DNA from: Acidimicrobiales bacterium
GTDB lineage: Bacteria; Actinomycetota; Acidimicrobiia; Acidimicrobiales; SZUA-35
Assembly: GCA_965216685.1 (NCBI GenBank)
Contig: OZ244195.1
Span: 4,896,673 to 4,960,672 of the forward strand
Length of the DNA: 64,000 nucleotides
Reading direction: 5' to 3'
Below the pieces are notes generated by a model that saw nothing but the letters and a program-made list of their open reading frames with translations, did not search any database and was not told the origin of the DNA. Of the stretch, positions 1,126 through 43,268 are shown one piece after another. Every line of letters starts with the position of its first letter. The stretch's first letter is position 1. Position numbers and translations under genes: made by a program.

Positions 1126-1145
1126 AGCAGATCCTCCACCATAGT

Positions 1146-1164
1146 GAGAATGAGTCTCATTCAC
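1146..1164. promoter_or_regulatory. Fur-family (Zur-type) operator palindrome in the divergent znuA-like / zur promoter.
   Basis: GAGAATGAG-T-CTCATTCAC is a 9-1-9 inverted repeat with one mismatch. The perfect 7-1-7 core GAATGAGTCTCATTC lies at 1148..1162. It is AT-richer than its surroundings, 21 nt upstream of the znuA-like ATG and 33 nt upstream of the zur ATG. Confidence 0.6.
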
Positions 1165-1196
1165 TCCCATCGGGCCGAACAAGATACGATGAATCC

Positions 1197-1673: not shown

Positions 1674-1677
1674 AACC

Positions 1678-2658: not shown

Positions 2659-2690
2659 CCGGCCGCCGGCTGGTCGCCGACCCCATTCTT

Positions 2691-2727
2691 GCAGTAGAAA
2701 ACGAGGCCCCGCCTCGTTTTCTACTGC
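2691..2727. terminator. Bidirectional hairpin between the convergent CDF and sigma genes.
   Basis: GCAGTAGAAAACGAGGC-ccc-GCCTCGTTTTCTACTGC forms a perfect 17-bp stem. It overlaps the TAG stop of the sigma gene. Confidence 0.6.
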
Positions 2728-3626: not shown

Positions 3627-3627
3627 G

Positions 3628-4842
3628 TCACACCCCGACCCGACCAGCGAGGTGGGCCAAGGCGGCCTGGGCCGCCATCGAGGCGCTGGCCACGGCGGCG
3701 TCGGCCAGATGACCGATCGGTCCCACCCAATCCCCGGCCAGGAAGACGTTGTCATGCCCGCTGTCGGTCACCAGCGGTCGACCGGCCATTCCCCCGCCGG
3801 CCGCGGTGGGTTGGGCCGATACCGGTGTCATCCGGTGCAGCGAGCGTGACATGATCACATCGTCGTCACCAACACCGGCATGACGGGCGAAGGCGGCCAG
3901 GGCGCCGGTATCGGGCTCGTCTCCCTCGCCCAGATACTGCAGCACTGCGCCGTGATGGCGATCCGGTGGGGCCAGCTCGGCTGCAGCCGAATGATTCGAG
4001 AAGTAGAACGGCACGTCACCTCCGAGGACAAAATCATGGCCCGGACGGCGCCGCAATCCCAGATCGAGGCAACTGGCTTGTGCCGGTGGACCGACGTCGA
4101 AGCGGCGGCCCAACAGCGCCTCGGCCGTCCGGGGACCACCAGCGGCGATGACCACGGCCCGGGCATCGGGCAAGGCCGCCACCGGTGTGCCGGCCCGAAC
4201 CTGGACCCCAGCCATGGCGGCCAGCTGGTCGATCAAGGTCTGCCAGCCGCGGTGCAGGTAGATGACTCCTTGGCCCAGCGCCCTCTGCATCTGCGATACG
4301 GCCACGTCGGCACTCATTTGATCAGGATGGCTGGAGTAGGTGGTCAGTCGGACAAGGGCCATGATCATGGTCGCCGCCCGTTCGTCGGTCACCGAGTCGG
4401 CCACCCAGTCGCTCACCGTGAGGTCGGCATACTCCCAGGCTTTGAGCTTGGGTAGCCGAGCCAGGTTGCGGGCTATCTCGATCTTGGCCCGGCCACCCAG
4501 CGCCCTGGTTTGCAGCAGACTGCTCGGTCCGGCCGGGGCGACATGGGTCTGACCGTCGAAGACAATGCGTCCCTTGATCGGCGGCCGTCCTCCATCGATC
4601 TTCACCCCCAGCTCCCGGAGGATATTGTCGGCCGGTCCACCCCGGTAGAGGGCGTGAGGCCCCTGGTTGAGGGTGAAGCCGTCCTTCTCGGTGCTCCGGG
4701 CGTCACCTCCCGGTACACCCAGTTTCTCGTGGACCACCACCGATCGGCCGGCCAGGGCCACGGTGGCCGCCGCGGTCAGACCGGCCAGCCCGCCGCCGAC
4801 GATCACCACATCAGGATCCGACATGTTCGTGTTCTCGCTCAT
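3628..4842 (-). CDS. NAD(P)/FAD-dependent oxidoreductase (phytoene-desaturase/amine-oxidase superfamily).
   Basis: Dinucleotide fold DVVIVGGGLAGLTAAATVALAGRSVVVHEKLGVPGG. C-terminal FLAGDW motif. Start is ambiguous (4887, 4842 or 4824); third-position GC is low upstream of 4842. Confidence 0.75.
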   Translation of the reverse strand: MSENTNMSDPDVVIVGGGLAGLTAAATVALAGRSVVVHEKLGVPGGDARSTEKDGFTLNQGPHALYRGGPADNILRELGVKIDGGRPPIKGRIVFDGQTHVAPAGPSSLLQTRALGGRAKIEIARNLARLPKLKAWEYADLTVSDWVADSVTDERAATMIMALVRLTTYSSHPDQMSADVAVSQMQRALGQGVIYLHRGWQTLIDQLAAMAGVQVRAGTPVAALPDARAVVIAAGGPRTAEALLGRRFDVGPPAQASCLDLGLRRRPGHDFVLGGDVPFYFSNHSAAAELAPPDRHHGAVLQYLGEGDEPDTGALAAFARHAGVGDDDVIMSRSLHRMTPVSAQPTAAGGGMAGRPLVTDSGHDNVFLAGDWVGPIGHLADAAVASASMAAQAALAHLAGRVGV

Positions 4843-4896
4843 GGTTGATCGACGAGACAGCCCGGCCCGATGTGACATCGATTTCATGGGCCGCAG

Positions 4897-22951: not shown

Positions 22952-23734
22952 TCAGTCGGTTCGAGAACCGAACCTCATCTGTTGGACTTGGGCCGACAGG
23001 CCTCCGTCGAGCACCCAGAGTTGGCCGGTGGCATAGCGGGCCTCGTCGGAGGCCAGCCAGAACACCAGGTTGGCCATGTCGGTCGGCGTGCCGATTGTCC
23101 GCAACGGGTGCACGGCCCGGGCCTCGGCTCGGGCCGCCTCGCCGTCGACCCCAGGGGGAAAGAACTGGTCGAGCATCGGGGTGTCGATGTAGCCCGGGCA
23201 GATGGCGTTGACCCGGATTCCTTCCGGACCGTGGTCGACGGCCATGGCCTTGGTGATCATGTGCACCGCCCCTTTGGTGGCGCAGTAGGCCGCCAGCTTG
23301 GGGTCGGCCATGTAGCCGTCGTAGCTGCCGAAGTTGATGATGGAGGCGCAGGGGGATCGCCGCAGCATGGGCAGGCCGTGCTTCGAGGTGAGAAAGGTGC
23401 CGGTCACGTTGACGGCGAAGATGCGCTCCCAGTCGTCAAGCGAGGTCTCCTCCACCGTCTTTTCCATCTCGATGCCGGCGGCGTTGACCAAGATGTCGAG
23501 CCGACCGCTTTCGGCTTCGATCCGGTCGAACCCGGCGACGACCGCCGCTTCGTCGGTGACGTCGAACGGGAGGAAGGCACCCGGAGCGGGCGTCGCCCCC
23601 ATCGTTCCCCGATCGGTCAGATCGGCGGCGTACACCCTGGCTCCCTCCCGCTCCAGCCGGTCACAAACCGCCCGTCCCGCCCCGCCCCGGCCGCCGGTCA
23701 CCAGGGCCACTCGACCCTCCAGTGGCCGGGTCAC
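22952..23734 (-). CDS. Short-chain dehydrogenase/reductase (SDR).
   Basis: The GTG start at 23734 overlaps the Rieske gene stop (GTGA). Motifs: VALVTGGRGGAGRA, NAAG, YCATKGAV. Confidence 0.85.
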   Translation of the reverse strand: MTRPLEGRVALVTGGRGGAGRAVCDRLEREGARVYAADLTDRGTMGATPAPGAFLPFDVTDEAAVVAGFDRIEAESGRLDILVNAAGIEMEKTVEETSLDDWERIFAVNVTGTFLTSKHGLPMLRRSPCASIINFGSYDGYMADPKLAAYCATKGAVHMITKAMAVDHGPEGIRVNAICPGYIDTPMLDQFFPPGVDGEAARAEARAVHPLRTIGTPTDMANLVFWLASDEARYATGQLWVLDGGLSAQVQQMRFGSRTD

Positions 23735-24855
23735 GACATGGCCTCCCGGTAGCGGTCGAGCACAAGCCCGTGGAAATGGTGGAGGGCATGTTCGGACAGG
23801 CCCGAACCCGACGGGTCGTTGACGATGCGGCCCTGGGTGAAGGCCGGGGTCTGCATGCCTCGCTGCACACTTTCCACCAGGTTGATGTCTTCCACCTGAA
23901 GGACCTCGTCGAGATAGTGGATGGATTCGAGTTCGGCTTGGGTCGGTTCGGCCGTTTCCAGGAAGAAGTCGTAGGTTTCGTGGGTCAGCCCGGGAGCCAC
24001 CGGGATGATCTTGAGAACGATCATGTTGCCCCGACCCGGGTACCGCATCAGGCAGGTGTTGGGCCAGAGCCACCACACGGCGTGGTCGGTCACGGTGGCC
24101 TCGCTGACGTCGTAGGCGGTATTGGCGCTCTTCCCGGCCTCGGCCATGTGGCTGGAGTAGATGCCGTGGGTGGTGACGGTGTAGGTGTCCATGTCGACCA
24201 GCGATACGAAGTCGCGGTGGGCCACGTGGCAGTGGTAGCACTCCAGGAAGTTGTCGACCACATTCTTCCAGTTGCTATCGATCTGGTAGGTCAGACGATG
24301 GGCGAAGGTCAGCCGGTCGACGTCGGGTGCCCAGTGGGCGATCTCGTCGGCCAGCGCTCCCGACTGTTCGGCCAGCGACGGCGCGCCGGGATCGAGGTTG
24401 ACGTAGACGAAGCCGCCGAACTCCTCGATCTGCACTCGGTCCAGGCAGATCGCACCGAGATCGAAATCGCTGAGGTGGTTGGTGTGGCGGGCTGACCGGA
24501 GTTGACCGTCGAGGTCGTAGGACCAGCCGTGATAGGGGCAGACGAGGTTGGCCACCGTCCCCTCCCCTTCGACCAGGTGATGGGCCCGATGTTTGCAGAC
24601 GTTGTAGAAGGCTCGAAGTTCCCCTCCCCGGTCACGCACGGCAACCACCGGCCTGCCGGCGATCACGTCGGCCACGTAGCAACCGGGCTCCCGAAGCTTC
24701 TCGCCATGGCAAACCCACTGCCAGGTTCGGCCGATGATGGCCTCCTGGTCGACGTCGAACCAACGCTGACGGGTGTAGGCGTCGGCGTGCAGCGACAGCG
24801 AGGTGCCCGGGTCGGTGGTCCAACCGGCGGTGATCTCAACTTTGGGGGCGACCAT
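23731..24855 (-). CDS. Rieske [2Fe-2S] non-haem-iron oxygenase alpha subunit.
   Basis: Trimmed to MVAPKVEIT. Rieske motif is CKHRAHHL...CPYHGWSY. Catalytic domain contains NFLECYHCHVAH. Confidence 0.85.
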   Translation of the reverse strand: MVAPKVEITAGWTTDPGTSLSLHADAYTRQRWFDVDQEAIIGRTWQWVCHGEKLREPGCYVADVIAGRPVVAVRDRGGELRAFYNVCKHRAHHLVEGEGTVANLVCPYHGWSYDLDGQLRSARHTNHLSDFDLGAICLDRVQIEEFGGFVYVNLDPGAPSLAEQSGALADEIAHWAPDVDRLTFAHRLTYQIDSNWKNVVDNFLECYHCHVAHRDFVSLVDMDTYTVTTHGIYSSHMAEAGKSANTAYDVSEATVTDHAVWWLWPNTCLMRYPGRGNMIVLKIIPVAPGLTHETYDFFLETAEPTQAELESIHYLDEVLQVEDINLVESVQRGMQTPAFTQGRIVNDPSGSGLSEHALHHFHGLVLDRYREAMS

Positions 24856-24874
24856 GATCTGACCGTAGCAAAGG

Positions 24875-24892
24875 ATTGAACAGCTGTTCAAT
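24875..24892. promoter_or_regulatory. Perfect 18-bp palindrome, candidate TetR operator upstream of the Rieske-SDR genes.
   Basis: ATTGAACAGCTGTTCAAT lies 20 nt upstream of the Rieske ATG and 23 nt downstream of the TetR stop. Confidence 0.6.
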
Positions 24893-24914
24893 ATTGCTGG
24901 TGTGGTGCCCGCGG

Positions 24915-25529
24915 TCAGCCGAGGGCGATCTCCTCACAGCGGGCCAGGGCCCGCTCCACGGCGTTGGCGTCGGGGATCAGAACCGCGGTCAGCCAGATGC
25001 CGTTCTGCACGATGAGTATGTCGGTGGCCCGCCTCTCCACTTCGTCAATTTCCAGCTCCGGTCGGGCAGCGGCCAACAGGTCGGTCAGGCCGGCCAGATA
25101 GCGGCGTTGGGCTCGCTGATTGATGTCGGCAAACAGCGGATCGACCCCGGCCAGCGACCAGAGCTGGAGGCGGAGGCTCAAATAGTCGGGGGTGAGCAAT
25201 ACCGGATCAAGAGCCCTGGCCAGGCCCCTACGTAACGCCGCAGCGGGGTCGGTGTGCTTGTGACCCACGACCAGGTCACCGACCACCAGCTCCAGATCTC
25301 GTTGGCCGATTCGTTCCAGGGCGGCCGAGATCAGTTCGGTCTTGTTGTTGTAGTAGTAGTTGGCCAGGCCAACGGCCACGTCGGCCTCCCGAGCCACCGC
25401 CCGGATGCTGACACCGGCAACGCCCTCTCGGGCCAGCACGGCGATGACCCCATCGAGAATCCGCTCCTTCTTGGACGACCCGGCACCGGCATCGTCGTCG
25501 CTCACAGCTCCACTCACGGCATCCATCAT
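24915..25529 (-). CDS. TetR-family transcriptional regulator.
   Basis: HTH SIRAVAREADVAVGLANYYYNNKTEL. Confidence 0.85.
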   Translation of the reverse strand: MMDAVSGAVSDDDAGAGSSKKERILDGVIAVLAREGVAGVSIRAVAREADVAVGLANYYYNNKTELISAALERIGQRDLELVVGDLVVGHKHTDPAAALRRGLARALDPVLLTPDYLSLRLQLWSLAGVDPLFADINQRAQRRYLAGLTDLLAAARPELEIDEVERRATDILIVQNGIWLTAVLIPDANAVERALARCEEIALG

Positions 25530-25569
25530 GCCATTCGACGCTGCTGGCGGCGTCGGCCCCGTCGTGGCG

Positions 25570-26082
25570 TCAGCCTTCGTTCGACTGCCCGGCCGTCATG
25601 GTCAACAGCTCGTCAATCTGCCCGAGAGCCAGCGTCATGCCCTCCTCAGCGCCCATGGCCAGGATCTGCTCCATGGCTTCCAGCGATCCGAAACGGGAGA
25701 TCATCGTCATCCGGGACCGACCGTCGGCCACCGGCTCGATGCGAACCTCGGTCACGGTGGTCGGCAGGCTGTCCGATGGTTGGCCCTCCTCATCGGAGAA
25801 GCCGTCGGTGAACCTCAGCAGCCGTGGCGCCTCGACCACGTCGATACGCCACCAGCCGGGATACTTGTCGCCGTCGGGGCCGGTCATGAAATAGGAGACC
25901 CGTCCGCCGGGAACGAGGTCGTGATCGACCACGGTGGCAGGATGGGTCGGAGGCCCCCACCACCGTTCCAGCTGTCGGGGGTCGGCCCACACCTGCCAGA
26001 GGCGATCAACCGACGCATCGAACTCCGACACCATCGTCAGGGTGAGAGCGTCGAGGTCCTGCTGGACGTCAACCACGGTCAT
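25570..26082 (-). CDS. SRPBCC-family protein (AHSA1 / activator of Hsp90 ATPase-like domain).
   Basis: FDASVDRLWQVWADPRQLERWWGP. Typical pairing with an upstream ArsR gene (ATGA overlap). Confidence 0.75.
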   Translation of the reverse strand: MTVVDVQQDLDALTLTMVSEFDASVDRLWQVWADPRQLERWWGPPTHPATVVDHDLVPGGRVSYFMTGPDGDKYPGWWRIDVVEAPRLLRFTDGFSDEEGQPSDSLPTTVTEVRIEPVADGRSRMTMISRFGSLEAMEQILAMGAEEGMTLALGQIDELLTMTAGQSNEG

Positions 26083-27391: not shown

Positions 27392-27449
27392 TTCGTCTTC
27401 TGGCCTTGATTTCCTCCGGTTTTCCGGAGGAAATCAAGGCCAGAACGAA
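27392..27449. repeat. Long perfect hairpin / inverted repeat between divergent genes.
   Basis: TTCTGGCCTTGATTTCCTCCGG-tttt-CCGGAGGAAATCAAGGCCAGAA is a perfect 22-bp stem at 27398..27445. An outer TTCG/CGAA pairing follows a 2-nt bulge. Confidence 0.8.
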
Positions 27450-30119: not shown

Positions 30120-31655
30120 TCAGCGCAGTTCGACACCGTGCTCGGCCAGTGATGGACCAAAGGTATCGTCGGCCAGCATGAGTTCGGCCGCCGCCAACTC
30201 CGGGGCCAGGTAGCGGTCGGGGCCGGGGCCCTCGACCTGGGTCCGCAACTCGGCGATTACGGCCGAGATGGCCGGCGACGATACCAGCGGGGCCCGGAGG
30301 TCGATGGCCCGGGCTCCGACCACCATCTCGACGGCCTGGATCCGTCGCAGGTTGTCGATCACCCGACGCAACTTGCGGACGGCACCCCAAGCCATGGAGA
30401 CGTGATCCTCCTGGAGAGCCGAGGTGGGGAGGGAATCAACCGAGGCTGGAGCGGCCAGCCGACGATTTTCGGCCACCATCGAGGCCGCGGTGTAGTGACC
30501 GATCATGAGACCGCTGTCGACCCCGACCTCGGAGGCCAGGAACGGCGCCAGCCCGTGGCTCCGGTTGTGGTCGAGGAGACGATCGAGACGGCGTTCGGCG
30601 ATGGCCCCGACCTCGGCCAGGGCGATGGCCAGGAAGTCGGCGGCGAAGCCCAGCGGGGCGCCGTGAAAGTTGCCGCACGATTCCACCCGACCATCAGGTA
30701 ACACCATCGGGTTGTCGATGGCGGCCGCCAATTCGTTCTCGGCCACCGTGCGGGCATGGGCCACCGTGTCGCGGGCGGCACCGTGCACTGCCGGGGTGCA
30801 GCGAATGCTGTAGGCGTCCTGCACTCGAGGATCGTCGACCTGGTGGCTGGCCAGGATCTGTGACCCGGACAGCAGCGCCCGCAGATTGGCTGCGCTGTAG
30901 ACCTGGCCCGGTTGGGGGCGCAGCGCCTGAAGATCGTGGGCGAAGGCCCGGTCGGTGGCCAGCAGGCCATCCACCGTCATGGCCGCCGCCAGGTCGGCGG
31001 TGGCGAGCAATCGCTGGGCGTCGTGAACGGCCAGGCAGAGCATGCCCAGGATGCCGTCGGTTCCGTTGATGAGGGCCAAGCCCTCCTTCTCCACCAGATC
31101 GACCGGCCGCAGTCCGGCGTCGGCCAGGGCATCGGCGGCCGGCCGCTGCCGTCCTTCGTGCTCGACTTCACCCTCTCCCAACAGCGCCAAGGCGGCATGG
31201 GCCAAGGGGGCCAGATCGCCGCTGGCCCCCAGACTACCGTACTCCGGCACCACGGGAACGATTCCGGCGTTGAGCAGATCGACGAAAGCCTGGGCCAGCC
31301 GGGGCCGGGTACCGCTGTGACCCATCGTCAGGGTGCGGGCCCTGAGCAGCATCATGGCCCGTACCGCCTCCTCCTCAATGGCCGGACCCATGCCGGCGGC
31401 GTGGGAGCGAATCAGCGCCAACTGCAGGGCTCGGCGACGGTCCGATGGAATGGCGACGGTGGCCAAGGCCCCGAACCCGGTCGAGATACCGTACTTCGGT
31501 TCACCGTCGGCCAGCCGTTCCACGATGGCCCGGGAGGCGGCCATCCGCTCCACGGCGGCCGGCGAGATGGTAACCGGGGCTTGACTGCGAGCCACGGCGA
31601 CAACATCGTCGATGGTGGTGTCGGGCCCGTCAAGTGTCACGGCAGTCGATGTCAC
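30120..31655 (-). CDS. hutH: Histidine ammonia-lyase.
   Basis: MIO-forming GSLGASGDLAPLAH. Other motifs: YGISTGFG and NFHGAPL. GTG start at 31655. Confidence 0.9.
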   Translation of the reverse strand: MTSTAVTLDGPDTTIDDVVAVARSQAPVTISPAAVERMAASRAIVERLADGEPKYGISTGFGALATVAIPSDRRRALQLALIRSHAAGMGPAIEEEAVRAMMLLRARTLTMGHSGTRPRLAQAFVDLLNAGIVPVVPEYGSLGASGDLAPLAHAALALLGEGEVEHEGRQRPAADALADAGLRPVDLVEKEGLALINGTDGILGMLCLAVHDAQRLLATADLAAAMTVDGLLATDRAFAHDLQALRPQPGQVYSAANLRALLSGSQILASHQVDDPRVQDAYSIRCTPAVHGAARDTVAHARTVAENELAAAIDNPMVLPDGRVESCGNFHGAPLGFAADFLAIALAEVGAIAERRLDRLLDHNRSHGLAPFLASEVGVDSGLMIGHYTAASMVAENRRLAAPASVDSLPTSALQEDHVSMAWGAVRKLRRVIDNLRRIQAVEMVVGARAIDLRAPLVSSPAISAVIAELRTQVEGPGPDRYLAPELAAAELMLADDTFGPSLAEHGVELR

Positions 31656-31690
31656 GTTGTGGCCTCACTCATGTCACTCATGTCGCTCAT
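31652..31690 (-). CDS. 12-codon bridging mini-ORF (MSDMSDMSEATT) built on a 3 x 9-bp tandem repeat.
   Basis: Its ATG overlaps the iclR stop (ATGA) and its TGA overlaps the hutH GTG (GTGA). GGAGG lies 7 nt upstream. Whether it is translated is unproven. Confidence 0.3.
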   Translation of the reverse strand: MSDMSDMSEATT

Positions 31691-32376
31691 GTCTCTGCCT
31701 CCTGGGCCCTACCCAGATCGACTGCCATCCGGGCGACTGTAGCGTCGAGGATGTTCTCGATGATCGTCGTTGTCGCCTCGTCCATACGGTGGGCGGGCCC
31801 GATCACCGAAAGTGCGACTTCGAACGGCAGATCTACCAGTGCTGCCCTCGAGACTGCGGTGATGTCGGGTTCAATGGCGCCGGTGCGGACGGCGCAACCG
31901 GTGGGGTCGGCCAGGGCAGCTCCCACCGCAGTGCCGTCGAGGGGCACCGTCTGACCAACCCAGCCGACATGGCGAATGGCCCGCCGACTCTCGGCCGTGG
32001 CCACGTAGGTCGCCACCCGGCCGTCCGACACCACAAGGTAGACAGACTCTCCAGTCGACTCGGCCAGCTCGGACAACAGGGGCTGGGCGATGGCCTTGAG
32101 CCGTTCCATCGGTGCCGCGCCACTGAAACCGGCCGCCAGTCGCCAGATGGTGGGCCCGGCCCGGTAGGCGCTGTCGGCCCCCCGGCTCAGGTAGCCGCGG
32201 GCCTCGAGGGCCCGCAGATGGCGCAGGGCGGTTGACGGATTCAATCCCGCTCGCTCCGCCGCCCCGGTCAGATTGCACCGGCCCTCGGCCAGCACGACTT
32301 CCAGGAGGTCAAGGACCCGGCCGACCGACCGGGGCACTGCAGCGGCCGGACCAGTGTTGGCATCGGCGTTGGTCAT
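31687..32376 (-). CDS. IclR-family transcriptional regulator.
   Basis: HTH RVLDLLEVVLAEGRCNLTGAAERAGLNPSTALRHLRALEARGYL. C-terminal effector domain present. Confidence 0.85.
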   Translation of the reverse strand: MTNADANTGPAAAVPRSVGRVLDLLEVVLAEGRCNLTGAAERAGLNPSTALRHLRALEARGYLSRGADSAYRAGPTIWRLAAGFSGAAPMERLKAIAQPLLSELAESTGESVYLVVSDGRVATYVATAESRRAIRHVGWVGQTVPLDGTAVGAALADPTGCAVRTGAIEPDITAVSRAALVDLPFEVALSVIGPAHRMDEATTTIIENILDATVARMAVDLGRAQEAET

Positions 32377-32390
32377 GAAACGCGCATCCC

Positions 32391-32486
32391 CATCCTTCGT
32401 CGGCTCATCCTTCGCTCAATTTCATCCCAGTTTCATCTCGGTTTCATCTGCTGAAAACATGTTCCGACTGTTGACAATCTAGTCGG
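32391..32486. promoter_or_regulatory. hut divergent control region with direct and inverted repeats.
   Basis: CATCCTTCG occurs twice (32391, 32406). TTTCATC occurs three times with 11-bp phasing (32420, 32431, 32442). CCGACT-N11-AGTCGG (32464..32486) encloses TTGACA. Confidence 0.5.
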
Positions 32487-32548
32487 GCAGCGAACACACT
32501 GCAAGAGACGCTCAATGCCCACTTCACCATCGAAAGGTGGCCTATTCC

Positions 32549-34225
32549 ATGGCTGATATCGGCACACCGGTGACCAACATCCGTGCCCCCCGGGGACCGT
32601 CCCTGACCTGCCGGTCGTGGTCAACCGAGGCCCCCTACCGGATGCTGCAGAACAACCTTGATCCCGAGGTGGCCGAGAATCCGGATCAGCTGGTGGTCTA
32701 CGGCGGCACCGGACGGGCCGCCCGCTCCTGGGACGCCTACCGGACCATGTTGACCACACTGGAGTCGCTGGCCGAGGACGAAACGATGTTGGTGCAGTCG
32801 GGCAAGCCGGTCGGGGTTCTCCGAACTCACGAATGGGCCCCCAGGGTGCTCATCGCCAACTCCAACCTGGTGCCGGACTGGGCCGACTGGGATGAATTCC
32901 GTCGCCTGGAACACCAGGGCCTGACCATGTACGGCCAAATGACGGCCGGATCCTGGATCTATATCGGAACCCAGGGCATCCTACAGGGAACCTACGAGTG
33001 CTTCGCCGAGATCGCCCGTACCCGGTTCGGTGGGAGCCTGGCCGGAACCCTGACCATTACCGCCGGTGCCGGCGGCATGGGCGGGGCCCAACCGCTGGCC
33101 GTGACCATGAACGACGGAGTGGTCCTCATCGTCGATGTCGACCCCCACATGTTGAACCGGCGCGTCGAGCACCGCTACCTCGACGAGGTCGCCCCCGACT
33201 ATGCCTCGGCGGTGGCCCGTGTGAGCGAGGCCAAGTCGGCCCGCCGGCCGCTTTCGGTCGGCCTGGTGGGCAACGCGGCGGAGATCCTGCCCCGTCTGCT
33301 GGCCGACGGCGTCGAGGCCGACATCGTCACCGACCAGACCAGCGCTCACGATCCCCTGTCGTACCTGCCCCAGGATCTGACCCTGGAGGCGGCCGAGACG
33401 CTCCGCCGGGACGACCCCGGCGAGTTCACCCGCCGAGCCCGGGCGGCCATGGCCACCCACTGCGCGGCCATGGTCGGGTTCATGGACGCCGGCGCCGAGG
33501 TGTTCGACTACGGAAACAGCCTGCGAGCCGAGGCCAAACTGGGTGGCTTCGACCGGGCCTTCGACTACCCCGGCTTCCTCCCCGCCTACATCCGTCCCCT
33601 GTTCTGCGAAGGCAAGGGCCCGTTCCGCTGGGTTGCCCTGTCCGGCGATCCGGCCGACATCGCCGCCACCGACCAGGCGGTGCTGGAGGAGTTCCCCGAA
33701 GACGACGCGCTGGCCCGCTGGATCACCATGGCCTCGGAGCGGGTGGCCTTCCAAGGGCTGCCGGCTCGGATCTGCTGGCTGGGCTACGGTGAACGGCATC
33801 GACTGGGACTGCGCTTCAACGAGATGGTGAAATCAGGTCAGCTGAAGGCCCCGGTGGTGATCGGCCGGGACCACCTCGACTCGGGATCGGTGGCCTCGCC
33901 CTACCGGGAAACCGAGGCCATGGCCGACGGCTCCGACGCCATCGCCGACTGGCCGTTGTTGAACGGGCTGGTCAACACCTGCTCCGGAGCCACCTGGGTC
34001 AGCCTCCATCATGGTGGCGGCGTCGGTATCGGCCGCTCGATTCACGCCGGTCAGGTGTCGCTGGCCGATGGAACCGATCTGGCCGCCCAAAAGCTGGAAC
34101 GGGTGTTGACCAACGATCCGGCCACTGGGGTGATCCGCCACGTCGACGCCGGCTATCCCCGGGCTAGCCAGGTGGCGAACGAGCGGGGTGTCGTGGTGCC
34201 CATGACCGACGGCCAAGGAGCCTGA
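32549..34225 (+). CDS. hutU: Urocanate hydratase.
   Basis: [60 protein letters not shown] precedes ATG 32549. Confidence 0.9.
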
Positions 34226-34227
34226 CG

Positions 34228-34800
34228 ATGGCGGTACAGGAGATCCTCCAGATCGGGCACCCGGTCCTCCGCCAACCGGCTTCGGCCGTCGACCGGGCTG
34301 ACATAGGCGGCCGCCGGATCCAAGGTTTGATCGACGACCTCATCGACACTATGCATCACGCTAACGGAGCCGGATTGGCCGCACCCCAGATCGGTGTCGG
34401 ATTGCGGGTGGCGGTTATGGAGGTGACCGACAACCCCCGCTACCCCTACAAGCCACCCATCCCGTTGACCGTGGCCATCAACCCGGTCATCACTCCGCTC
34501 GACGACGAAATGGTCGAGATCAACGAGGGATGCTTGTCGGTTCCATTGCGGGGCAACGTCATGCGCCACGTCAACATCGCCGTCAACTACCTGGATCGGG
34601 CCGGTACCGAACAGCAGGCCACGTTGCGGGGTCTGACCGCCGGAACCTGGCAGCACGAGTGCGATCATCTCGATGGTCTCCTGTTCGTCGACCGGGTGGC
34701 CGACACCACGACGTTGACCACCTGGGACGAATTCGAGGCCCATCACCGCGACGCATTTGTCGAACGCATCACCGCCTTCGTCGAGCGCGTCGGATCCTGA
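34228..34800 (+). CDS. def: Peptide deformylase homologue located inside the hut operon.
   Basis: All three PDF motifs are present: GAGLAAPQIG, EGCLSVP and QHECDHLDG. The ATG lies 2 nt after the hutU stop, and the hutF GTG lies 4 nt after its stop. Confidence 0.8.
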   Translation: MAVQEILQIGHPVLRQPASAVDRADIGGRRIQGLIDDLIDTMHHANGAGLAAPQIGVGLRVAVMEVTDNPRYPYKPPIPLTVAINPVITPLDDEMVEINEGCLSVPLRGNVMRHVNIAVNYLDRAGTEQQATLRGLTAGTWQHECDHLDGLLFVDRVADTTTLTTWDEFEAHHRDAFVERITAFVERVGS

Positions 34801-34804
34801 ACCG

Positions 34805-36157
34805 GTGAAGATCTGGTGCGAGCTGGCCCTGGTCGACGGCCGGGTTCAGCCCGGCGTTCAGCTCACGATTGACGGTGGCCGCTATGGGGCTGTCGATGTA
34901 GCGGCCGCCCCTCATGGGGCCGACGAGCGCCGCTCCGGGCTCAGTCTTCCCGGTTTGGCCAACGGTCACAGCCATGCCTTCCACCGGGCTCTTCGGGGAC
35001 ACACTCAGGCCGACCAGGGATCATTCTGGACCTGGCGAAACCTGATGTACCGGGTTGCCGAGCGGCTCGATCCCGACCGCTACCGGCGCCTGGCCCGGGC
35101 CGTCTACGGCGAAATGGCATGCGCCGGGATCAGTGCCGTCGGCGAGTTCCACTACCTGCACCACTCCCCCACCGGTGCTCCCTACAACGACCCCAATGCC
35201 ATGGGCGATGCCTTGATCGAAGCGGCAGCCGAGGCCGGCATCCGATTGACATTACTCGACACCCTCTACCAACACGGCGGCCTCGGCCCCGACGGCTACC
35301 AGCTTCCGGAGGGAGTGCAGCAGCGGTACCGCGACGCCTCGACCGACCATTGGCTGAGCCGGATCGATGGCCGGCAGCCGGCCGACCATGTCCGGTTCGG
35401 GGCCGCGGTGCATTCCGTCCGAGCCGTCGATCCCCACGGTTTGGCCGTGGCCGCCGATTGGGCTCGCCGCCGGGGCGCCCCGTTGCACGCCCATGTTTCC
35501 GAACAGCCGGCCGAGAACGACGCCTGCCAGGCTCACCATGACATGACCCCCAGTTCCCTTCTGGAATCGGCCGGCACACTCGACACGATGTTCACCGCCG
35601 TGCACGCCACCCATTTGACCGAAGACGATATCGAGCTGTTGGGGCGAAGCCGGTCGACGGTCTGCTTCTGCCCGACCACCGAACGCGATCTGGGCGACGG
35701 CATCGGACCCAGTTCCCGGCTGATCGAGGCCGGGGCGCCGTTGTCACTGGGGACCGACTCCCACGCCGTGATCGACATGCTGGAGGAGGCCCGCCTGGTC
35801 GAGCTGCACCAACGGCTGAGCCGCGGTCGGCGGGGGATCCACGGCACGGAGGAGCTGGTGGTAATGGCCACCGTCAACGGGCACCGGTCCCTCGGTTGGA
35901 CCGACGCCGGCGAACTGATCCCCGGAGCTCGGGCCGACCTGGTTACCATCGATCTCACCACTGTCCGGACGGCCGGAGCAGTGAGAGGCGACAACCACGA
36001 CGGCGCGCTGGCCTCCGCCGTCTTCGCCTCCGGAACGGCCGACATCACCGACGTCATGATCGATGGTGTGACCGTGGTATCCGATCGGCGCCATCGATCC
36101 ATCGACGTCGCCCACGAACTCCAGGCCGCCATGACCGAACTCCTCCACCATGACTGA
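34805..36157 (+). CDS. hutF: Formimidoylglutamate deiminase.
   Basis: [64 protein letters not shown]. This matches my memory of the Pseudomonas HutF pattern. Confidence 0.85.
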
Positions 36158-37337
36158 CACCAACAACCAAACAGGCGGCAACTCCGAGTCGATTGTCATC
36201 GACAGTATCGGGCTGTTGATCACCAATGATCCGGAGCTGGGCAACGGGCCGCTCGGGCGTTTGACCGATGCCGCCGTCGTCATCACCGGCGGGGTGGTTG
36301 AAGCGGTGACATCGGCGGGGGCGGCCGGCGATCGTCGTATCGACGCCCACGGTTCATGTGTCATTCCCGGTTTCGTCGACTCCCACAGCCATCTGGTCTT
36401 CGCCGGGGATCGGGCCGATGAATTCGCCGCCCGTATGGCCGGGCAGGATTATGACGGCGGCGGGATCAGGGTCACCACCGAGGCCACCCGGCAAGCCTCA
36501 ACCGACGAACTCGACCGGCTGGTACGGGAACGGCTGCGACGGGCCCGGCTGAGCGGCACCACCACCATGGAGATCAAATCGGGCTACGGACTCAACGTGG
36601 TCGACGAGAAACGTGCGTTGCAAGTGGCCGAAGCCCTCACCGGCGAAACCACGTTCCTCGGCGCCCACCTCGTTCCCCCCGAATACCTGGGACGCCCCGA
36701 CGACTACATCGACCTGGTCTGCGGCGAGATGCTGGCCGCCGCCGCCCCCCACGCCCGCTGGATCGACGCCTTCTGCGAGACCGGGGCCTTCGATGTCGAG
36801 CAGTGCCGTCGGGTTCTGGAAGCGGGCCGCCAGGCCGGCCTGGGGCTTCGGCTCCACGGCAACCAGCTGGGACACGGGCCGGGCGTGCAGCTGGCGGTGG
36901 AGATGGGTTGCGCGTCGGTCGATCACTGTACCTACCTGACCGACGACGACATCGACGCCCTGGCCGGCTCGAACACGGTGGCCACCCTGCTCCCGGCCAC
37001 CGACTTCTCCACCCGACAGCCCTATCCCGACGCCCGCCGACTGCTCGATGCCGGCGCAACGGTGGCCATTGCCGCCAACTGCAACCCCGGCTCCAGCTAC
37101 ACCACGTCCATCCCCTTCTGTCTGGCCCTGGCCGTGCGGGACATGAACATGACCTCCGACCAGGCGTTGCAGGCGGCAACCCTCGGCGGCGCCGCCGCCC
37201 TCGGCCGCACCGATATCGGTCGCCTCACCCCCGGTGCGAAGGGGCACGCCGTCATCCTCGACGCCCCATCCCACCACCACTTCGCCTACCAGCCGGGACA
37301 GAACCTCATCCGGCAGACCGTTGGACCATGGGATTGA
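36150..37337 (+). CDS. hutI: Imidazolonepropionase.
   Basis: [40 protein letters not shown]. 8-nt overlap with hutF. Confidence 0.9.
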
Positions 37338-37448
37338 GCGGCCCGACTGGGCCGTCAAGTCATGGCGGCGTGCATCCACCGGCCGATCGCTGACGTTAGG
37401 TTGTCTGTGGTGACTTCTACAGCAACGTCCAACGATCCAACCGAACCG

Positions 37449-38219
37449 ATGCTCGACGTCGACGACGGAGTCTTTCGCCGTCTGCGCAACCTGAACATCG
37501 GTGCGGCCGTACTTCACTTGGTGTCGGGGATCGCCATGGTGGTGCTGGGTAACGACTTCTCGCTACCCGTCTCATTGTTCAACCTGGGTGGTCCGCCCGG
37601 CACCCCGCTCAGCGAAGGTTTCCTCGAGGAGCTCTGGCAGTTTCCGCTGGCCATCGGCACGGCCGGCTTCATGTTCCTGTCGGCGCTGTTCCACCTGATC
37701 GTGGTGGCTCCCGGGGGCTACGACATCTACCAGCGCGAGATCCGTCGCGGTCGGAACCGGTTCCGTTGGGTGGAATACTCGCTGTCCTCCACCCTGATGA
37801 TCGTACTCATCGCCCTGATCGTCGGCATCACCGACATCGCCGCCCTGATCGGCATATCGGTGGCCAACGTGGCCATGATCCTGTTCGGTTGGGTCATGGA
37901 GATCGTCAACCGTCCCGGCGATCGGGTCTGGTGGTCCCCGTTCTGGTTCGGCTGTATCGCCGGCATCGCCCCCTGGCTCGCCCTGGTGGCCTATCTGACA
38001 CTGTCGAGTAGCGGCGAGGGCCCTCCGGGCTTCGTCTACGGCATCCTGGTGAGCATCTTCGTGCTGTTCAACTGCTTCGCCGTCAACCAGTGGCTGCAGT
38101 ACCGGGGAGTAGGCCGCTGGGCCGACTATGTCTTCGGGGAACGGGTCTACATCATCTTGAGCTTCGTGGCCAAGAGCGCCCTGGCCTGGCAGATCTTCGC
38201 CAACACTCTGATCGACTAA
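37449..38219 (+). CDS. Heliorhodopsin (7-TM retinal protein, inverted topology family).
   Basis: Full-length resemblance to heliorhodopsins as I recall them: NIGAAVLHL (His23), SALFHLIV (His82), FRWVEYSLSS (counterion Glu109, nt 37773-37775), ILFGW, PFWFGCIAGIAPW, PGFVYGI, and SFVAKSALAWQIF (Schiff-base Lys242, nt 38172-38174). Alternative GTG starts lie at 37407/37410. Confidence 0.9.
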   Translation: MLDVDDGVFRRLRNLNIGAAVLHLVSGIAMVVLGNDFSLPVSLFNLGGPPGTPLSEGFLEELWQFPLAIGTAGFMFLSALFHLIVVAPGGYDIYQREIRRGRNRFRWVEYSLSSTLMIVLIALIVGITDIAALIGISVANVAMILFGWVMEIVNRPGDRVWWSPFWFGCIAGIAPWLALVAYLTLSSSGEGPPGFVYGILVSIFVLFNCFAVNQWLQYRGVGRWADYVFGERVYIILSFVAKSALAWQIFANTLID

Positions 38220-38230
38220 TAGCCAACCTT

Positions 38231-38280
38231 GTTCTGTCTGCTCCCACGCGTCGATCTCGACGCGTGGGAGCAGACAGAAC
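38231..38280 (+). terminator. Very strong hairpin immediately after the heliorhodopsin stop.
   Basis: GTTCTGTCTGCTCCCACGCGTCGA / TCGACGCGTGGGAGCAGACAGAAC forms perfect 24-nt arms. No U-tract follows. Confidence 0.65.
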
Positions 38281-38451
38281 GGCGTCTTATGGGCGGGGAC
38301 AAGGCTCGGCTACAGTGATCGGTGGCCCCGTCGGTAGGGCCACCGGTCCGCGGAGAGGGCGAAGCCCAGCCGACTCTCGCTTGAGAAGCAACCGAACATC
38401 CTCTTTCCGCCCGTCGATGCGGACCTCGGGCCAACCACGAAAGGGGCTGTC

Positions 38452-39591
38452 ATGCCTTCTGTTCCTCTTCCCGAGAACCCATCGATCGAGCACCTCAAGA
38501 AGCAGGCCAAGCTCGTGCAGGAACTGGTGCGGGCCGCCGACGACGGGGCCTTGAACATGGTCCGGGAGTTCCACCCCACCCTGTCCGACGCCGATCCTGC
38601 CTCGCCCGAGATCAGCGGCTTCAGCCGGACCAACGCCCAACTGGTGGTGGCCCGGCTGTACGGGTTCGCCAGCTGGGTCAAGCTTCGAGCCCACGTCCAG
38701 CTCATCCAGGACCACAGCCTGCCCGACCCGGCCGACGAGGGCCCCGATGACGGAGTCACTCAGCCGCCGGTCGACCGGTTCGTGTCACTGGCCTGTGTCA
38801 GCTACAACCCGGTTGACGTTCACCGCCGGCTGAGTGACGCCACGGCCATGCTGGCCGCCGATCCGGCGTTGTCAGGAGCATCGGCCGCGGCCATGGCCAC
38901 CACCGGCGACCATCGACGACTCAACGAGCTCCTGGCCACCGACCCCGAGCTGGCCCGGCGGCCGACCGGTCCCAACCGGTGGCCCCTCATCCTGTACTGC
39001 TGCTATTCCCGGGTGGGGGCCCACGGCCAGGAGCACTCGGCAGTGGCCACCGCCCGGCTCCTGCTCGACCGGGGAGCCGACCCCAACACCGGTTTCCTGT
39101 GGCACGGCCTGGTGCCGCCGTTCACCGCGTTGACCGGTGCCTTCGGTCGGGGTGAGGGCGACCAGCCCCGGCATCCCCAGTGGCAGGAGCTGGCCCGCCT
39201 GCTACTGGAGGCCGGGGCGGATCCCAACGACGGCCAAGCGCTGTACAACAACGGCCTGGCGGGAACAGCCCACGACGATCCAAGCCACCTTCAACTGCTG
39301 CACGAGTTCGGACTCGGCCAGGATCAGGACGGGCCGTGGTATCGACAGTTCGGCCAACGGCTGACCCCGGCGCAGGAGTTGCTGTATGACGAACTCGAGG
39401 TTGCCGCCTGGCGGAATCTACCCAACCGCATGCGATTCCTGGTCGGATTGGGGTTGGACCTCAACCGAGGAGTTGGGCGCTCAGGGCAGGCACCCCTCGA
39501 TATCGCCCTGGGGGCCGGCCACGAGGAGGTGGTGGACATCCTTCGCTCAGCCGGTGCCGCCGGAGAAACAGGCGCTACAGCTGGCGGCTGA
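38452..39591 (+). CDS. Ankyrin-repeat protein with a conserved N-terminal helical domain.
   Basis: N-terminus PSIEHLKKQAKLVQELVRA. C-terminal repeats are LLLDRGADPNTG, LLLEAGADPNDG and LDIALGAGHEEVVDILRSAGA. GAAAGGGG RBS. Confidence 0.7.
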   Translation: MPSVPLPENPSIEHLKKQAKLVQELVRAADDGALNMVREFHPTLSDADPASPEISGFSRTNAQLVVARLYGFASWVKLRAHVQLIQDHSLPDPADEGPDDGVTQPPVDRFVSLACVSYNPVDVHRRLSDATAMLAADPALSGASAAAMATTGDHRRLNELLATDPELARRPTGPNRWPLILYCCYSRVGAHGQEHSAVATARLLLDRGADPNTGFLWHGLVPPFTALTGAFGRGEGDQPRHPQWQELARLLLEAGADPNDGQALYNNGLAGTAHDDPSHLQLLHEFGLGQDQDGPWYRQFGQRLTPAQELLYDELEVAAWRNLPNRMRFLVGLGLDLNRGVGRSGQAPLDIALGAGHEEVVDILRSAGAAGETGATAGG

Positions 39592-40294
39592 GGACCAACC
39601 AGCCGAAACCCAGCACCGACCGGTAGTGGTTGAGATACTGTTGTTCCCGCCCGGCGGCGAAGGCCTCGGCGTGGGCCGTTCCCACCGCCCGGACGCCGGC
39701 CGTCCAGCCCTGCTCGAACCGGTCCCACTCGGACTGGGACGAGAGGTCCGAGTCGACGATTCGCCAACCGGCGGCCAGGGCGTTGGCCTCCAGCCCGGCC
39801 AATCCGACGGGCTGGGGCCCGAAGTTGTCGAGACACCACTGGTCGGGCGCCGTCTGCCAGACGCCGTCACCTACGACGGCCGTTCCGGTTGACACCAGCC
39901 GAGCCAGGTGCTCGAACATGGCCGACGAGCCGCCGAAGGCGTGGGAGGCGCCGATGCAGACGGCGGCATCGACCGAGCCCGACCAGGCGGCGGCGTCGCC
40001 GACGGCGAACGACACCCGGGAGGCCAGCCGGCGATCGACGGCTCGCCGCTGGGCCTCCTTGATGGCTTCGGCGTCGGTGTCGACACCAACCACCGCGACC
40101 GACGGAAGGGCATCGGCCAACAGCAACGCCAGCTCGCCCCGGCCGCACCCAAGATCGACCACCGAACGGCAGCCGGCCTCCCCCACCAGGGCGACAAGTG
40201 CTCCCGCTCGTTCGGCGCTCAACGGGGCATTGAAGGTCACTGCCTCGGCACCGGCAGTCATCAGCTCGGCCCTGATTTCCGCGGCCAACTCCAT
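39575..40294 (-). CDS. Class I SAM-dependent methyltransferase.
   Basis: Motif I is VVDLGCGRGELALLLA. Its 3' end overlaps the convergent ankyrin gene by 17 nt. Confidence 0.8.
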   Translation of the reverse strand: MELAAEIRAELMTAGAEAVTFNAPLSAERAGALVALVGEAGCRSVVDLGCGRGELALLLADALPSVAVVGVDTDAEAIKEAQRRAVDRRLASRVSFAVGDAAAWSGSVDAAVCIGASHAFGGSSAMFEHLARLVSTGTAVVGDGVWQTAPDQWCLDNFGPQPVGLAGLEANALAAGWRIVDSDLSSQSEWDRFEQGWTAGVRAVGTAHAEAFAAGREQQYLNHYRSVLGFGWLVLSRQL

Positions 40295-43230: not shown

Positions 43231-43268
43231 GTGCGCCCCACCGTTCACCGGTGAACGGTGGAGCGCAC
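43231..43268. terminator. Hairpin between the convergent thiolase and yjbR-like genes.
   Basis: GTGCGCCCCACCGTTCACC / GGTGAACGGTGGAGCGCAC forms 19-nt arms with one mismatch. Confidence 0.55.

Follow-up and report, generated by a model that had tools for sequence, protein, structure and literature searches.

Functions of heliorhodopsins (HeRs) have mostly been inferred from their neighbor genes, so each apparent new partner draws attention. The known HeR partners (glutamine synthetase, photolyase and an ABC transporter) all came from operon neighbors (PMC11109279; PMC9529153). In the Acidimicrobiales genome studied here, an HeR gene stands directly behind the genes of histidine utilization (hut), and the question raised by this locus is whether HeR works together with Hut or only happens to lie next to it. 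We addressed this question in a stretch of 64,000 nucleotides (hereafter the window) and in related genomes and metagenomic contigs. Our preferred reading, with a probability of about 0.7, is that HeR is a normal, selectively maintained, autonomous gene in a variable slot, and that its adjacency to hut is no mark of a Hut-specific function.

A full-length heliorhodopsin under purifying selection

37410..38219, forward strand: HeR gene, 269 amino acids from GTG 37410 (homology, key residues, and start by comparison with relatives)

The gene in the window is a genuine, ordinary, full-length heliorhodopsin, in line with the family call of the earlier note. It matches Pfam PF18761 over the whole profile (positions 1-242 of 242, E = 2.7e-97, 325 bits against a cut-off of 26.7) and the NCBIfam HeR equivalog NF038020 at 303 bits (cut-off 100). 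In a phmmer search against the PDB, residues 10-255 align with residues 10-254 of 48C12 (6SU3, E = 4e-72) with 52% identity over 243 positions, and sequence similarity extends end to end with 6SU3, 6UH3 and 9LJJ (E about 4e-72) and with 6IS6 (E = 5e-52). A seven-helix fold like that of the solved HeR structures is predicted from these matches. The alignment with 48C12 also agrees with the hallmark residues that had been picked out at their codons: H23 (37515-37517) is conserved with H23 of 48C12, H82 (37692-37694) is the counterpart of H80, E109 (37773-37775) that of the helix 3 counterion E107, and K242 (AAG, 38172-38174) that of the helix 7 Schiff-base lysine K241.

The gene start, previously placed at 37449 to give a product of 256 amino acids, has to be revised. 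Relatives show ACA or GCG at the position of ATG 37449, which is thus not conserved as a start, and their HeR N-terminus MTT(N/S)T corresponds to GTG 37410 in the window, the conserved start of a 269-amino-acid protein. The database call of 285 amino acids begins at ATG 37362, which falls inside a window-specific insert of 15 nt. Lysine and arginine residues number 3 at the N-terminus, 6 in the B-C loop, 2 in the D-E loop, 2-3 in the F-G loop and 0 in the predicted extracellular loops; this crude positive-inside count, made on a rough hydropathy segmentation, fits the inverted topology with a cytoplasmic N-terminus. HeR is under purifying selection, with dN/dS ratios of 0.06-0.14 within the clade of hut-linked HeRs and dS values of 0.8-0.9 between the window and its relatives.

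The hut genes upstream of HeR

30120..31655, reverse strand: hutH, histidine ammonia-lyase (TIGR01225, 639 bits, cut-off 539; Pfam Lyase_aromatic, E = 9.5e-183)
31687..32376, reverse strand: gene of an IclR-type regulator (Pfam HTH_IclR and IclR_C), upstream of hutH and divergent from hutU
32377..32536, no strand: divergent control region between the IclR gene and hutU, with repeated GTTTCAT(C) units and a TTGACA-containing block
32537..34225, forward strand: hutU, urocanate hydratase (TIGR01228, 889 bits, cut-off 375)
34228..34800, forward strand: peptide-deformylase paralogue, def (Pfam Pep_deformylase, E = 2.9e-46)
34805..36157, forward strand: hutF, formimidoylglutamate deiminase (NF006681, 588 bits, cut-off 362; TIGR02022, 452 bits, cut-off 413)
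36150..37337, forward strand: hutI, imidazolonepropionase (TIGR01224, 367 bits, cut-off 298), last gene of the conserved hut unit

The order hutU-def-hutF-hutI on the same strand upstream of the opsin, as read earlier, is confirmed by hut calls above the NCBIfam equivalog cut-offs. The IclR-type gene at 31687..32376 is probably the hut regulator, and its position is kept in three relatives (L003, L063 and L064) and in many metagenomic hut loci. In the control region, exact copies of GTTTCAT(C) were found at 32430 and 32441, and the TTGACA-containing block is kept in L003. hutF probably starts at GTG 34805; its ORF is also open from TTG 34757, and hutF of the relatives is called at 449 amino acids. 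Depending on this start, the spacings within hut are 2, 4 (or -44) and -8 nt, compared with 72 nt ahead of HeR.

The def paralogue deserves a separate remark. In 35 of 41 metagenomic hut loci it lies between these two genes, hutU and hutF; its motifs GAGLAAPQ, EGCLS and HECDH are intact, and it occupies the operon position where an N-formylglutamate hydrolase would be expected. The gene at 34228..34800 is a candidate N-formylglutamate deformylase.

Transcription across the gap between hutI and HeR

37338..37409, forward strand: hutI-HeR gap, 72 nt (folds and alignment of relatives)

Two gap sizes had been given previously. The smaller one, about 70 nt with a GTG start, agrees with the 72 nt counted from the conserved GTG 37410, and the larger one, 111 nt, falls together with the ATG start. 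The gap was also described as holding a 5-bp hairpin; the stem at 37338-37355 has 7 bp (-13.7 kcal/mol), is not followed by a U-tract and is missing from relatives. The general layout stands as described, with HeR on the same strand as hutI behind a short gap that has no strong terminator. In relatives, 64 to about 157 nt separate the two genes.

No conserved hairpin and no convincing promoter consensus were found in 37338..37409, and a scan of 31500-39700 for sigma-70 promoter and terminator consensus sequences gave none in the gap or after HeR; the host promoters and terminators do not fit the scanned consensus. Two short motifs are conserved in the gap, GCATCCA (37372-37378) and GACG (37392-37395). 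By eye, GCATCCA is followed 17-18 nt on by a TANNNT-like hexamer in the window, in L062 and partly in L061, but not in L001-L003. GCATCCA is absent from the stretch behind hutI in L063, and GCATCCA-like strings occur upstream of HeR in L005 and L060, both of which are unlinked to hut. Because HeR lies on the same strand only 72 nt behind hutI, with neither a conserved hairpin nor a convincing promoter in the gap, read-through from hut into HeR is plausible. Read-through transcription of HeR is therefore possible, and the odds between it and an own promoter in the 72-nt gap are about even.

Two further candidates were rejected. The GTTTCAT repeats are confined to the hutU control region, so that an IclR operator near HeR was discarded. 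A fusion of HutI and HeR by stop-codon read-through was considered since the two frames coincide, with TGA between them, in the window, L002 and L003; they do not coincide in L001 and L062, and the coincidence was taken as chance in a GC-rich genome.

Adjacency of hut and HeR is confined to one clade

The adjacency of hutI and HeR was found on eight contigs of about five lineages, which form one terminal clade (84-87% identity) in crude, single-gene neighbor-joining (NJ) trees of HeR. This hut-linked clade comprises the window, L001/L058/L059, L002/L003, L061 and L062. Its sister HeR in L060 (82% identity) has a divergent and unrelated upstream gene, its own downstream hairpin and no hut linkage. 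The HeR genes of L004 and L005 (74-76% identity) are located among metal-transport and DUF2254 genes and among nitroreductase, RsbW-like and sigma-factor genes, respectively. The commonest neighbors at HeR loci are short-chain dehydrogenases (SDR, 12 of 58 loci), ABC ATPases (8) and alpha/beta hydrolases (6), and no hut gene lies within 10 kb of HeR at any of the other 54 loci from genomes. In the reverse survey, which took in metagenomic loci that extend more than 900 nt beyond hutI, HeR was found at one of 61 loci, and that contig is L003, already a member of the clade. The earlier note had offered hut linkage in relatives as a check on its proposal, and the proposal fails this check: the linkage is confined to one terminal clade and is absent from the sister HeR, from 54 other HeR loci and from 60 of 61 hut loci. 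Co-localization of hut and HeR is not conserved across lineages.

In the closest relatives, other genes occupy this position. L063 and L064 are syntenic with the window and as close to it as the HeR-bearing relatives are (92-93% identity in HutU, 84-85% in HutI and 83% in the thiolase), and they nest among the HeR-bearing genomes in flanking-gene trees, which are again crude single-gene NJ trees. Both keep the upstream unit hutH-IclR-hutU-def-hutF-hutI and the downstream unit Ank-3HCDH-ECH-thiolase-DUF1801-DAC-OsmC (Ank, ankyrin-repeat gene). Between hutI and Ank, in place of HeR, they hold either DUF1330 and an AAA kinase or DJ-1 and an F420 oxidoreductase, and a search for HeR remnants in these slots gave no credible match. 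Since hut and Ank are kept in L063 and L064 with other genes between them, the place of HeR is a variable slot flanked by two conserved units. With the adjacency restricted to a small group of related bacteria, and with other genes in the slot in the closest relatives, a working link of HeR to histidine metabolism is unlikely.

HeR as a possible working member of the hut operon

The strongest competitor of our preferred reading is that HeR works as part of the hut operon, made within of a histidine- or urocanate-induced transcript and modulating a Hut enzyme or glutamine synthetase in response to light. Several observations speak for it. HeR follows hutI on the same strand after a short gap with no conserved terminator, and the adjacency has been retained in five lineages across a synonymous divergence of about 0.8-0.9, with HeR under purifying selection. 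There is a precedent for an HeR that regulates an operon neighbor in nitrogen assimilation (PMC9529153; PMC11109279); the report of glutamine synthetase regulation mentioned in the earlier note is real (PMC9529153). The Hut products are substrates of glutamine synthetase. Against these points, the linkage arose once and is shallow, and neither the sister HeR nor any of the 54 other HeR loci shows it; nearly all surveyed hut loci (60 of 61) have no HeR; and in two equally related genomes unrelated genes have taken the place of HeR next to an intact hut operon. Furthermore, the spacing within hut suits translational coupling, unlike that ahead of HeR, no GTTTCAT site resembling an IclR operator lies near HeR, and no glutamine synthetase gene was found among the window ORFs scanned. 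A literature search found no link of heliorhodopsin with hut, histidine utilization or urocanate. We consider a working membership of HeR in the hut operon unlikely.

The same results bear on the earlier proposal of a light sensor genetically tied to histidine and nitrogen catabolism, which does not survive an adjacency limited to one shallow clade and a slot that holds unrelated genes in L063 and L064. A functional tie of HeR to Hut or glutamine synthetase is unsupported and improbable. Slightly less probable still is the more specific version in which HeR, read through from a histidine- or urocanate-inducible hut promoter, has been co-opted for adjusting nitrogen flow in times of light. If this were true, HeR might bind a Hut enzyme or glutamine synthetase, or might sense the UV conversion of trans-urocanate to its non-metabolized cis form, and it would represent an eleventh, lineage-specific HeR partner context.

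The hairpin and the ankyrin-repeat gene downstream of HeR

38231..38280, forward strand: perfect 24-bp palindromic hairpin, single copy and window-specific
38311..38451, forward strand: promoter-like -10 element and structured leader of the ankyrin gene (from alignments)
38452..39591, forward strand: ankyrin-repeat protein gene, 379 amino acids (Pfam Ank repeats at the C-terminus), downstream boundary of the slot

The perfect 24-bp stem noticed previously right after the opsin is supported by both folding and shuffling (-54.8 kcal/mol, z-score -7.9; none of 200 shuffled sequences folds as well). At the corresponding site, a long hairpin is missing from L001 and L058, six tandem repeats of 19 nt stand in L002, and L003 has only an 86-nt gap. 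The hairpin is likely a terminator of the HeR transcript that has no U-tract. The idea that the palindrome is a mobile or repeated element was rejected, as its sequence is unique among all sequences compared; three further long palindromes in the window are likewise of unique sequence. No Rfam match was obtained for the whole window at gathering thresholds, and at E up to 10 the region 37300-38500 gave only chance matches of miRNA hairpins to the palindrome.

A promoter-like element and a leader of its own seem to precede the ankyrin gene. The -10-like element is TACAGT (38311-38316), and the leader contains two blocks, at 38345-38367 and 38403-38424. Leader sequence CCUCUUUC (38400-38407) is able to pair with the Shine-Dalgarno sequence GAAAGGGG (38439-38446). 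The leader is also present in L063 and L064, neither of which has HeR in the slot, and it has no Rfam match. Homologs of the ankyrin gene number 4348, mostly in Acidimicrobiia and Actinomycetota. That a widespread ankyrin-repeat gene has a nearly invariant, unannotated RNA leader is an observation in its own right.

Ankyrin repeats mediate protein-protein contacts. On these grounds the partner of HeR could be the downstream ankyrin protein, the real unit being HeR and Ank instead of HeR and hut: wherever a contig of the hut-linked clade reaches far enough downstream, Ank is found 3′ of HeR and on its strand, and in L003 the 86-nt gap between the two genes has no long hairpin. However, the -10-like element and the nearly invariant leader of Ank are also found in L063 and L064, which have no HeR ahead of it; the Ank family is widespread, with 4348 matches, yet missing at the other 54 HeR loci; and the 24-bp hairpin parts the two genes in the window. 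Partnership with the ankyrin protein is thus very unlikely.

Retinal supply

In line with the earlier note, the scan of about 50 ORFs of the 64-kb window against Pfam gave no retinal-synthesis gene, be it blh, crtB or crtY, and the sole loosely related match, at 3628-4896, is to a flavin amine-oxidase domain and is weak. That the opsin is an inactive relic or has no chromophore, as this absence might suggest, is extremely improbable, given that the Schiff-base lysine, the counterion glutamate and both histidines are kept in a protein with full-length similarity to solved HeRs, that dN/dS is 0.06-0.14, and that the 64 kb scanned belong to a contig of about 5.4 Mb, which leaves room for retinal genes elsewhere or for uptake of retinal from outside.

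A probable autonomous gene in a variable slot

We return to HeR as an autonomous gene in a variable slot, for which the following course can be proposed. By homology, HeR would be a retinal protein of seven helices whose N-terminus is cytoplasmic. As in published HeRs, it would hold all-trans retinal at the lysine encoded by 38172-38174, with the glutamate encoded by 37773-37775 as counterion, and would pump no ions; after light absorption, it would probably influence a partner protein via the positively charged loops on its cytoplasmic side. In the window, transcription of HeR probably stops at the 24-bp hairpin. The adjacency to hutI would have been inherited within one genus-level clade, with other genes replacing HeR in sister genomes, and functional coupling between HeR and Hut would be absent.

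On this reading, the locus is an example of how a variable slot can by accident produce a layout as neat as that of an operon. It also offers a natural experiment: in sister genomes the same hut operon is found either followed by HeR or not, and read-through expression and any effect of light on histidine use can be compared directly between them. The def paralogue within hut and the leader of the ankyrin gene may outweigh the main finding in worth.

Comparison with known systems

Known actinobacterial hut clusters include the HutR type of Corynebacterium and the Streptomyces type with hutU, an M20 hydrolase, hutF and hutI. Those that have an IclR-type regulator and use the HutF route share their layout with the window, hutH and the IclR gene being divergent from hutU-X-hutF-hutI. 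They differ at position X, which is taken by a peptide-deformylase paralogue in the window and by an M20 hydrolase or HutG in the known clusters. HeR is not a member of the conserved actinobacterial hut cluster.

The HeR itself is close to 48C12 (PDB 6SU3/6SU4, 6UH3), whose H23, H80, E107 and K241 are all retained and with which it shares the motifs FRWVEYSLSS, PFWFGCIAGI, PGFVYGI and VAKSALAWQIF. The two differ in the N-terminal tail and in a 2-residue insertion in the A-B loop, neither of which suggests a difference in function. 48C12 comes from a freshwater actinobacterial fosmid, whereas the window HeR comes from an Acidimicrobiales genome.

Ten groups of HeR neighbors have been described, namely glutamine synthetase (GS), NAD synthetase, photolyase, MerR, TerC, ABC transporter, SDR, alpha/beta hydrolase, DUF2177 and DUF2238 (PMC11109279). 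That study relied on guilt by operon association, as we did here. The hut genes lie outside its ten groups, and hut terms do not occur in the part of its supplementary tables that was available. The immediate neighbors of the window HeR are hutI and the ankyrin gene; none of the ten published partner genes is adjacent, and in particular no GS, photolyase, MerR, TerC or ABC transporter gene adjoins it. The recurrent neighbors in our wider sample of Acidimicrobiia (SDR, ABC ATPase and alpha/beta hydrolase) are classes found among the ten groups.

A further parallel is AbHeR of Actinobacteria bacterium IMCC26103, for which binding to GS and its light-dependent activation have been measured (PMC9529153). 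Both AbHeR, paired with GS, and the window HeR are actinobacterial, have positively charged cytoplasmic loops (predicted ones in the window HeR) and lie on the same strand as neighbors of nitrogen metabolism. AbHeR has GS and NAD synthetase as neighbors, which belong to the same published group, and this neighborhood recurs among the surveyed HeR genomes, whereas the window HeR has hutI as its neighbor in one shallow clade.

Heliorhodopsin downstream of hutI

The interval 37338-38280 on the forward strand contains a single long ORF, which ends at 38219 and encodes a full-length heliorhodopsin (HeR). The protein covers the entire profile of Pfam PF18761 (E = 2.7e-97) and scores 303 bits against the NCBIfam HeR equivalog, the cut-off of which is 100. 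In a phmmer search of PDB sequences, residues 10-255 align to residues 10-254 of the solved heliorhodopsin 48C12 (6SU3; E = 4e-72), with 52% identity over 243 positions. Both family models and the full-length alignment thus bear out the identity proposed in the earlier note, and the four key residues named there are correct.

Codons of key HeR residues, from alignment to 48C12 (48C12 numbering in brackets)
37515-37517, +, H23
37692-37694, +, H82 (H80)
37773-37775, +, counterion E109 (E107)
38172-38174, +, Schiff-base K242 (K241)

Lysine and arginine are confined to the N-terminus and the loops expected to be cytoplasmic, which is consistent with the inverted topology of the family. Among the ~6,650 homologues scored, the closest named ones are Acidimicrobiales or Ilumatobacter proteins. 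The window has a G+C content of 66% and is part of a 5.39-Mb contig. As already noted, no retinal-synthesis genes are evident in the window: none was found among the ~50 ORFs scanned.

The hut operon

All hut gene assignments were made with NCBIfam equivalog models and are above cut-off. The gene identities and the layout, with HeR on the hutU-def-hutF-hutI strand, hold as first described. Beyond the ankyrin-repeat gene (Ank) lie a FadB-like gene and a thiolase gene.

Genes around HeR
30120-31655, divergent from hutU, hutH
31687-32376, divergent from hutU, IclR-type regulator
32537-34225, +, hutU
34228-34800, +, peptide-deformylase paralogue (def)
34805-36157 (probable), +, hutF
36150-37337, +, hutI
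38452-39591, downstream of HeR, Ank (379 aa)

Repeated GTTTCAT(C) units are found in the control region between the IclR gene and hutU (window 32420-32490; 4985-5045 in the relative's contig L003), together with an inverted GTTTCAT-N3-CTGAAAAC and a TTGACAATCTAGTCG block that is conserved. These elements are likely the hut operator and promoter. No operator-like GTTTCAT copies were found near HeR.

Within the operon, the def paralogue is conserved at its place in hutU-def-hutF-hutI, and its three catalytic motifs (GxGxAAxQ, EGCLS and HExDH) are all intact. In 35 of 41 metagenomic hut loci it separates hutU from hutF, and it is found in relatives at L058 2030-2599, L063 5842-6411 and L064 5253-5822; in the more distant loci L132, L133 and L138, an M20 AllC-like hydrolase occupies that position. 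No match to HutG-type PF05013 was found among the ORFs scanned, all those around the hut cluster included. The def paralogue is a good candidate for a non-orthologous replacement of the missing N-formylglutamate deformylase, a role in hut operons of which our literature search found no mention.

HeR as one occupant of a variable slot

We surveyed the linkage from both sides. Among 57 HeR loci (one genome per species, up to 10 kb either side), HeR has hut genes at its flanks only in L001-L003, the closest three (HeR identity 84-85%), and none of the remaining 54 has any. The nearest database homologues added four contigs (L058, L059, L061 and L062), each with hutI directly upstream of HeR. Neighbor-joining groups the hut-linked HeRs in a single terminal clade. 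Its sister is L060 (HeR identity 82%), where the upstream gene is divergent and unrelated and HeR has its own hairpin downstream, followed by L004 and L005 (74-76%), which have no hut genes and place HeR among metal-transport/DUF2254 genes and nitroreductase/RsbW-like/sigma-factor genes, respectively. From the other side, a HutI query of metagenomes gave 80 loci at 60-84% identity, 61 of which extend >900 nt downstream of hutI; HeR is present there in one, and that contig is L003's. The two surveys therefore speak against recurrent hut linkage.

The contigs L063 and L064, reached via the Ank protein, resemble the window as closely as the relatives that carry HeR do (HutU 92-93%, HutI 84-85%, thiolase 83%), and HutI, HutF and Ank trees nest them among the HeR-bearing genomes. 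Both keep hutH-IclR-hutU-def-hutF-hutI on one flank and Ank-3HCDH-ECH-thiolase-DUF1801-DAC-OsmC on the other.

Contents of the interval between hutI and Ank
window 37338-38300, +, HeR
L063 9007-9836, +, DUF1330 and AAA-type kinase
L064 8365-9722, -, DJ-1/PfpI and F420 oxidoreductase

Since other genes stand at this interval in syntenic contigs, it is a variable slot with HeR as one of at least three occupants, and the hut operon forms a full unit of its own, widely conserved in the absence of HeR. We consider HeR to be an autonomous gene in this slot (probability about 0.7). Functional coupling of HeR to Hut or glutamine synthetase, as the adjacency had suggested, is unlikely: the adjacency arose once, as a shallow event in a slot filled differently in L063 and L064, and so is not the new functional context proposed in the earlier note.

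Two further HeR neighborhoods were observed. In L021 (HeR identity 64%), orthologues of a Rieske oxygenase (71%) and a TetR regulator (54%) lie just upstream of HeR (1116-3634); their window counterparts are at 23731-25595, ~12 kb upstream, and the L021 placement may be a remnant of an earlier gene order. In L005 (6862-8938; HeR 76% identical), HeR is directly followed by an RsbW-like anti-sigma kinase ORF, scoring slightly under the HATPase_c_2 gathering threshold, and a SigB/F-type sigma factor; ahead of HeR is a sequence similar to SigF/SigB promoters, GTTT-N16-GGGTAA. At this one locus, light could be linked to a partner-switching module.

Start codon and upstream region

The first-proposed start, ATG 37449, is not conserved in an alignment with close relatives. 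The public gene call P0001 (285 aa) starts at ATG 37362, which sits in a 15-nt insert specific to the window, and it probably over-extends the N-terminus. HeRs of the relatives begin with MTT(N/S)T, the equivalent of which in the window is GTG 37410 (MTSTATS...); with this start the protein has 269 aa and the gap to hutI is 72 nt. The 111-nt gap first proposed is thus given up, whereas the GTG alternative of ~70 nt stands. Within the hut operon, adjacent genes are spaced by 2, 4 (or -44) and -8 nt. Immediately after the hutI stop the gap contains a hairpin of 7 bp (-13.7 kcal/mol), not 5 bp as previously stated, which the relatives do not have.

A short motif, GCATCCA then GACG, is common to the gaps of all hut-linked relatives. 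GCATCCA is absent after hutI in L063, where the slot holds no HeR, and similar strings occur upstream of HeR in L005 and L060, neither of which is hut-linked. Together with GCATCCA accompanying HeR, these two observations weakly favor an own upstream region; no consistent -10/-35 pair was definable in the gap by consensus scan and alignment of relatives. The HeR transcript would start at a promoter in the gap or, about equally likely, arise by read-through from hut. Lineage-specific co-option of HeR to the histidine-induced transcript is unlikely.

At 37335-37409, the hutI and HeR frames are parted only by the hutI stop TGA, the ORF being open from 37338. L002 and L003 share this frame coincidence whereas L001 and L062 do not, so it is probably due to chance.

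Downstream palindromes and the Ank leader

The perfect 24-bp-stem hairpin reported right after the opsin is present at 38231-38280 (-54.8 kcal/mol, z-score -7.9), and in the window the HeR transcript probably ends there. It is one of four long perfect or near-perfect palindromes in the window, with stems of 19-24 bp, each of unique sequence.

Long palindromes
2687-2731
27398-27445, just before a 2-hydroxyacid dehydrogenase start, bordering a block of three genes missing from L003
38231-38280, after HeR
43231-43268

Convergent genes enclose two of the four, several coincide with synteny breakpoints, and they may be terminators without U-tracts. From HeR to the Ank promoter the sequence is hypervariable. 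At the site of the window's palindrome, behind the HeR stop, L002 carries six tandem 19-nt units (CTAGCTCGATCGCCATCGA; ~1309-1430), L001 has no counterpart and L003 has hardly any sequence at all.

Ank is preceded by a nearly invariant leader (38311-38451, +) beginning with a -10-like TACAGT. The leader is also found in L001, L002, L058, L062, L063 and L064, and is truncated in L003. Its blocks 1 (38345-38367) and 2 (38403-38424) are complementary, and their predicted pairing is the alternative to a helix in which CCUCUUUC (38400-38407) would sequester the Shine-Dalgarno sequence GAAAGGGG (38439-38446). In architecture the leader is similar to a riboswitch or thermosensor; it has no match in Rfam, and no covariation is seen because the sequences barely vary. 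That the Ank protein is the partner of HeR is very improbable; Ank follows HeR in the window, and it is likewise kept in L063 and L064, which have no HeR in the slot.

Comparison with known heliorhodopsins

Within the hut-linked clade, the dN/dS of HeR is 0.06-0.14, indicating purifying selection and therefore a functional protein, so that a dead opsin is very improbable. By homology with characterized heliorhodopsins (PMC9529153, PMC11109279), the window HeR would bind retinal, transport no ions and act via cytoplasmic loops that contact a partner in a light-dependent manner. The commonest HeR neighbors across our loci are SDR (12 of 58), ABC ATPase (8) and alpha/beta hydrolase (6) genes; these classes are included in the ten published neighbor groups, and hut is not (PMC11109279). 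Our literature search found no report of HeR-hut adjacency. As a protein, the window HeR is typical of its family, for which thousands of sequences and several structures are available.
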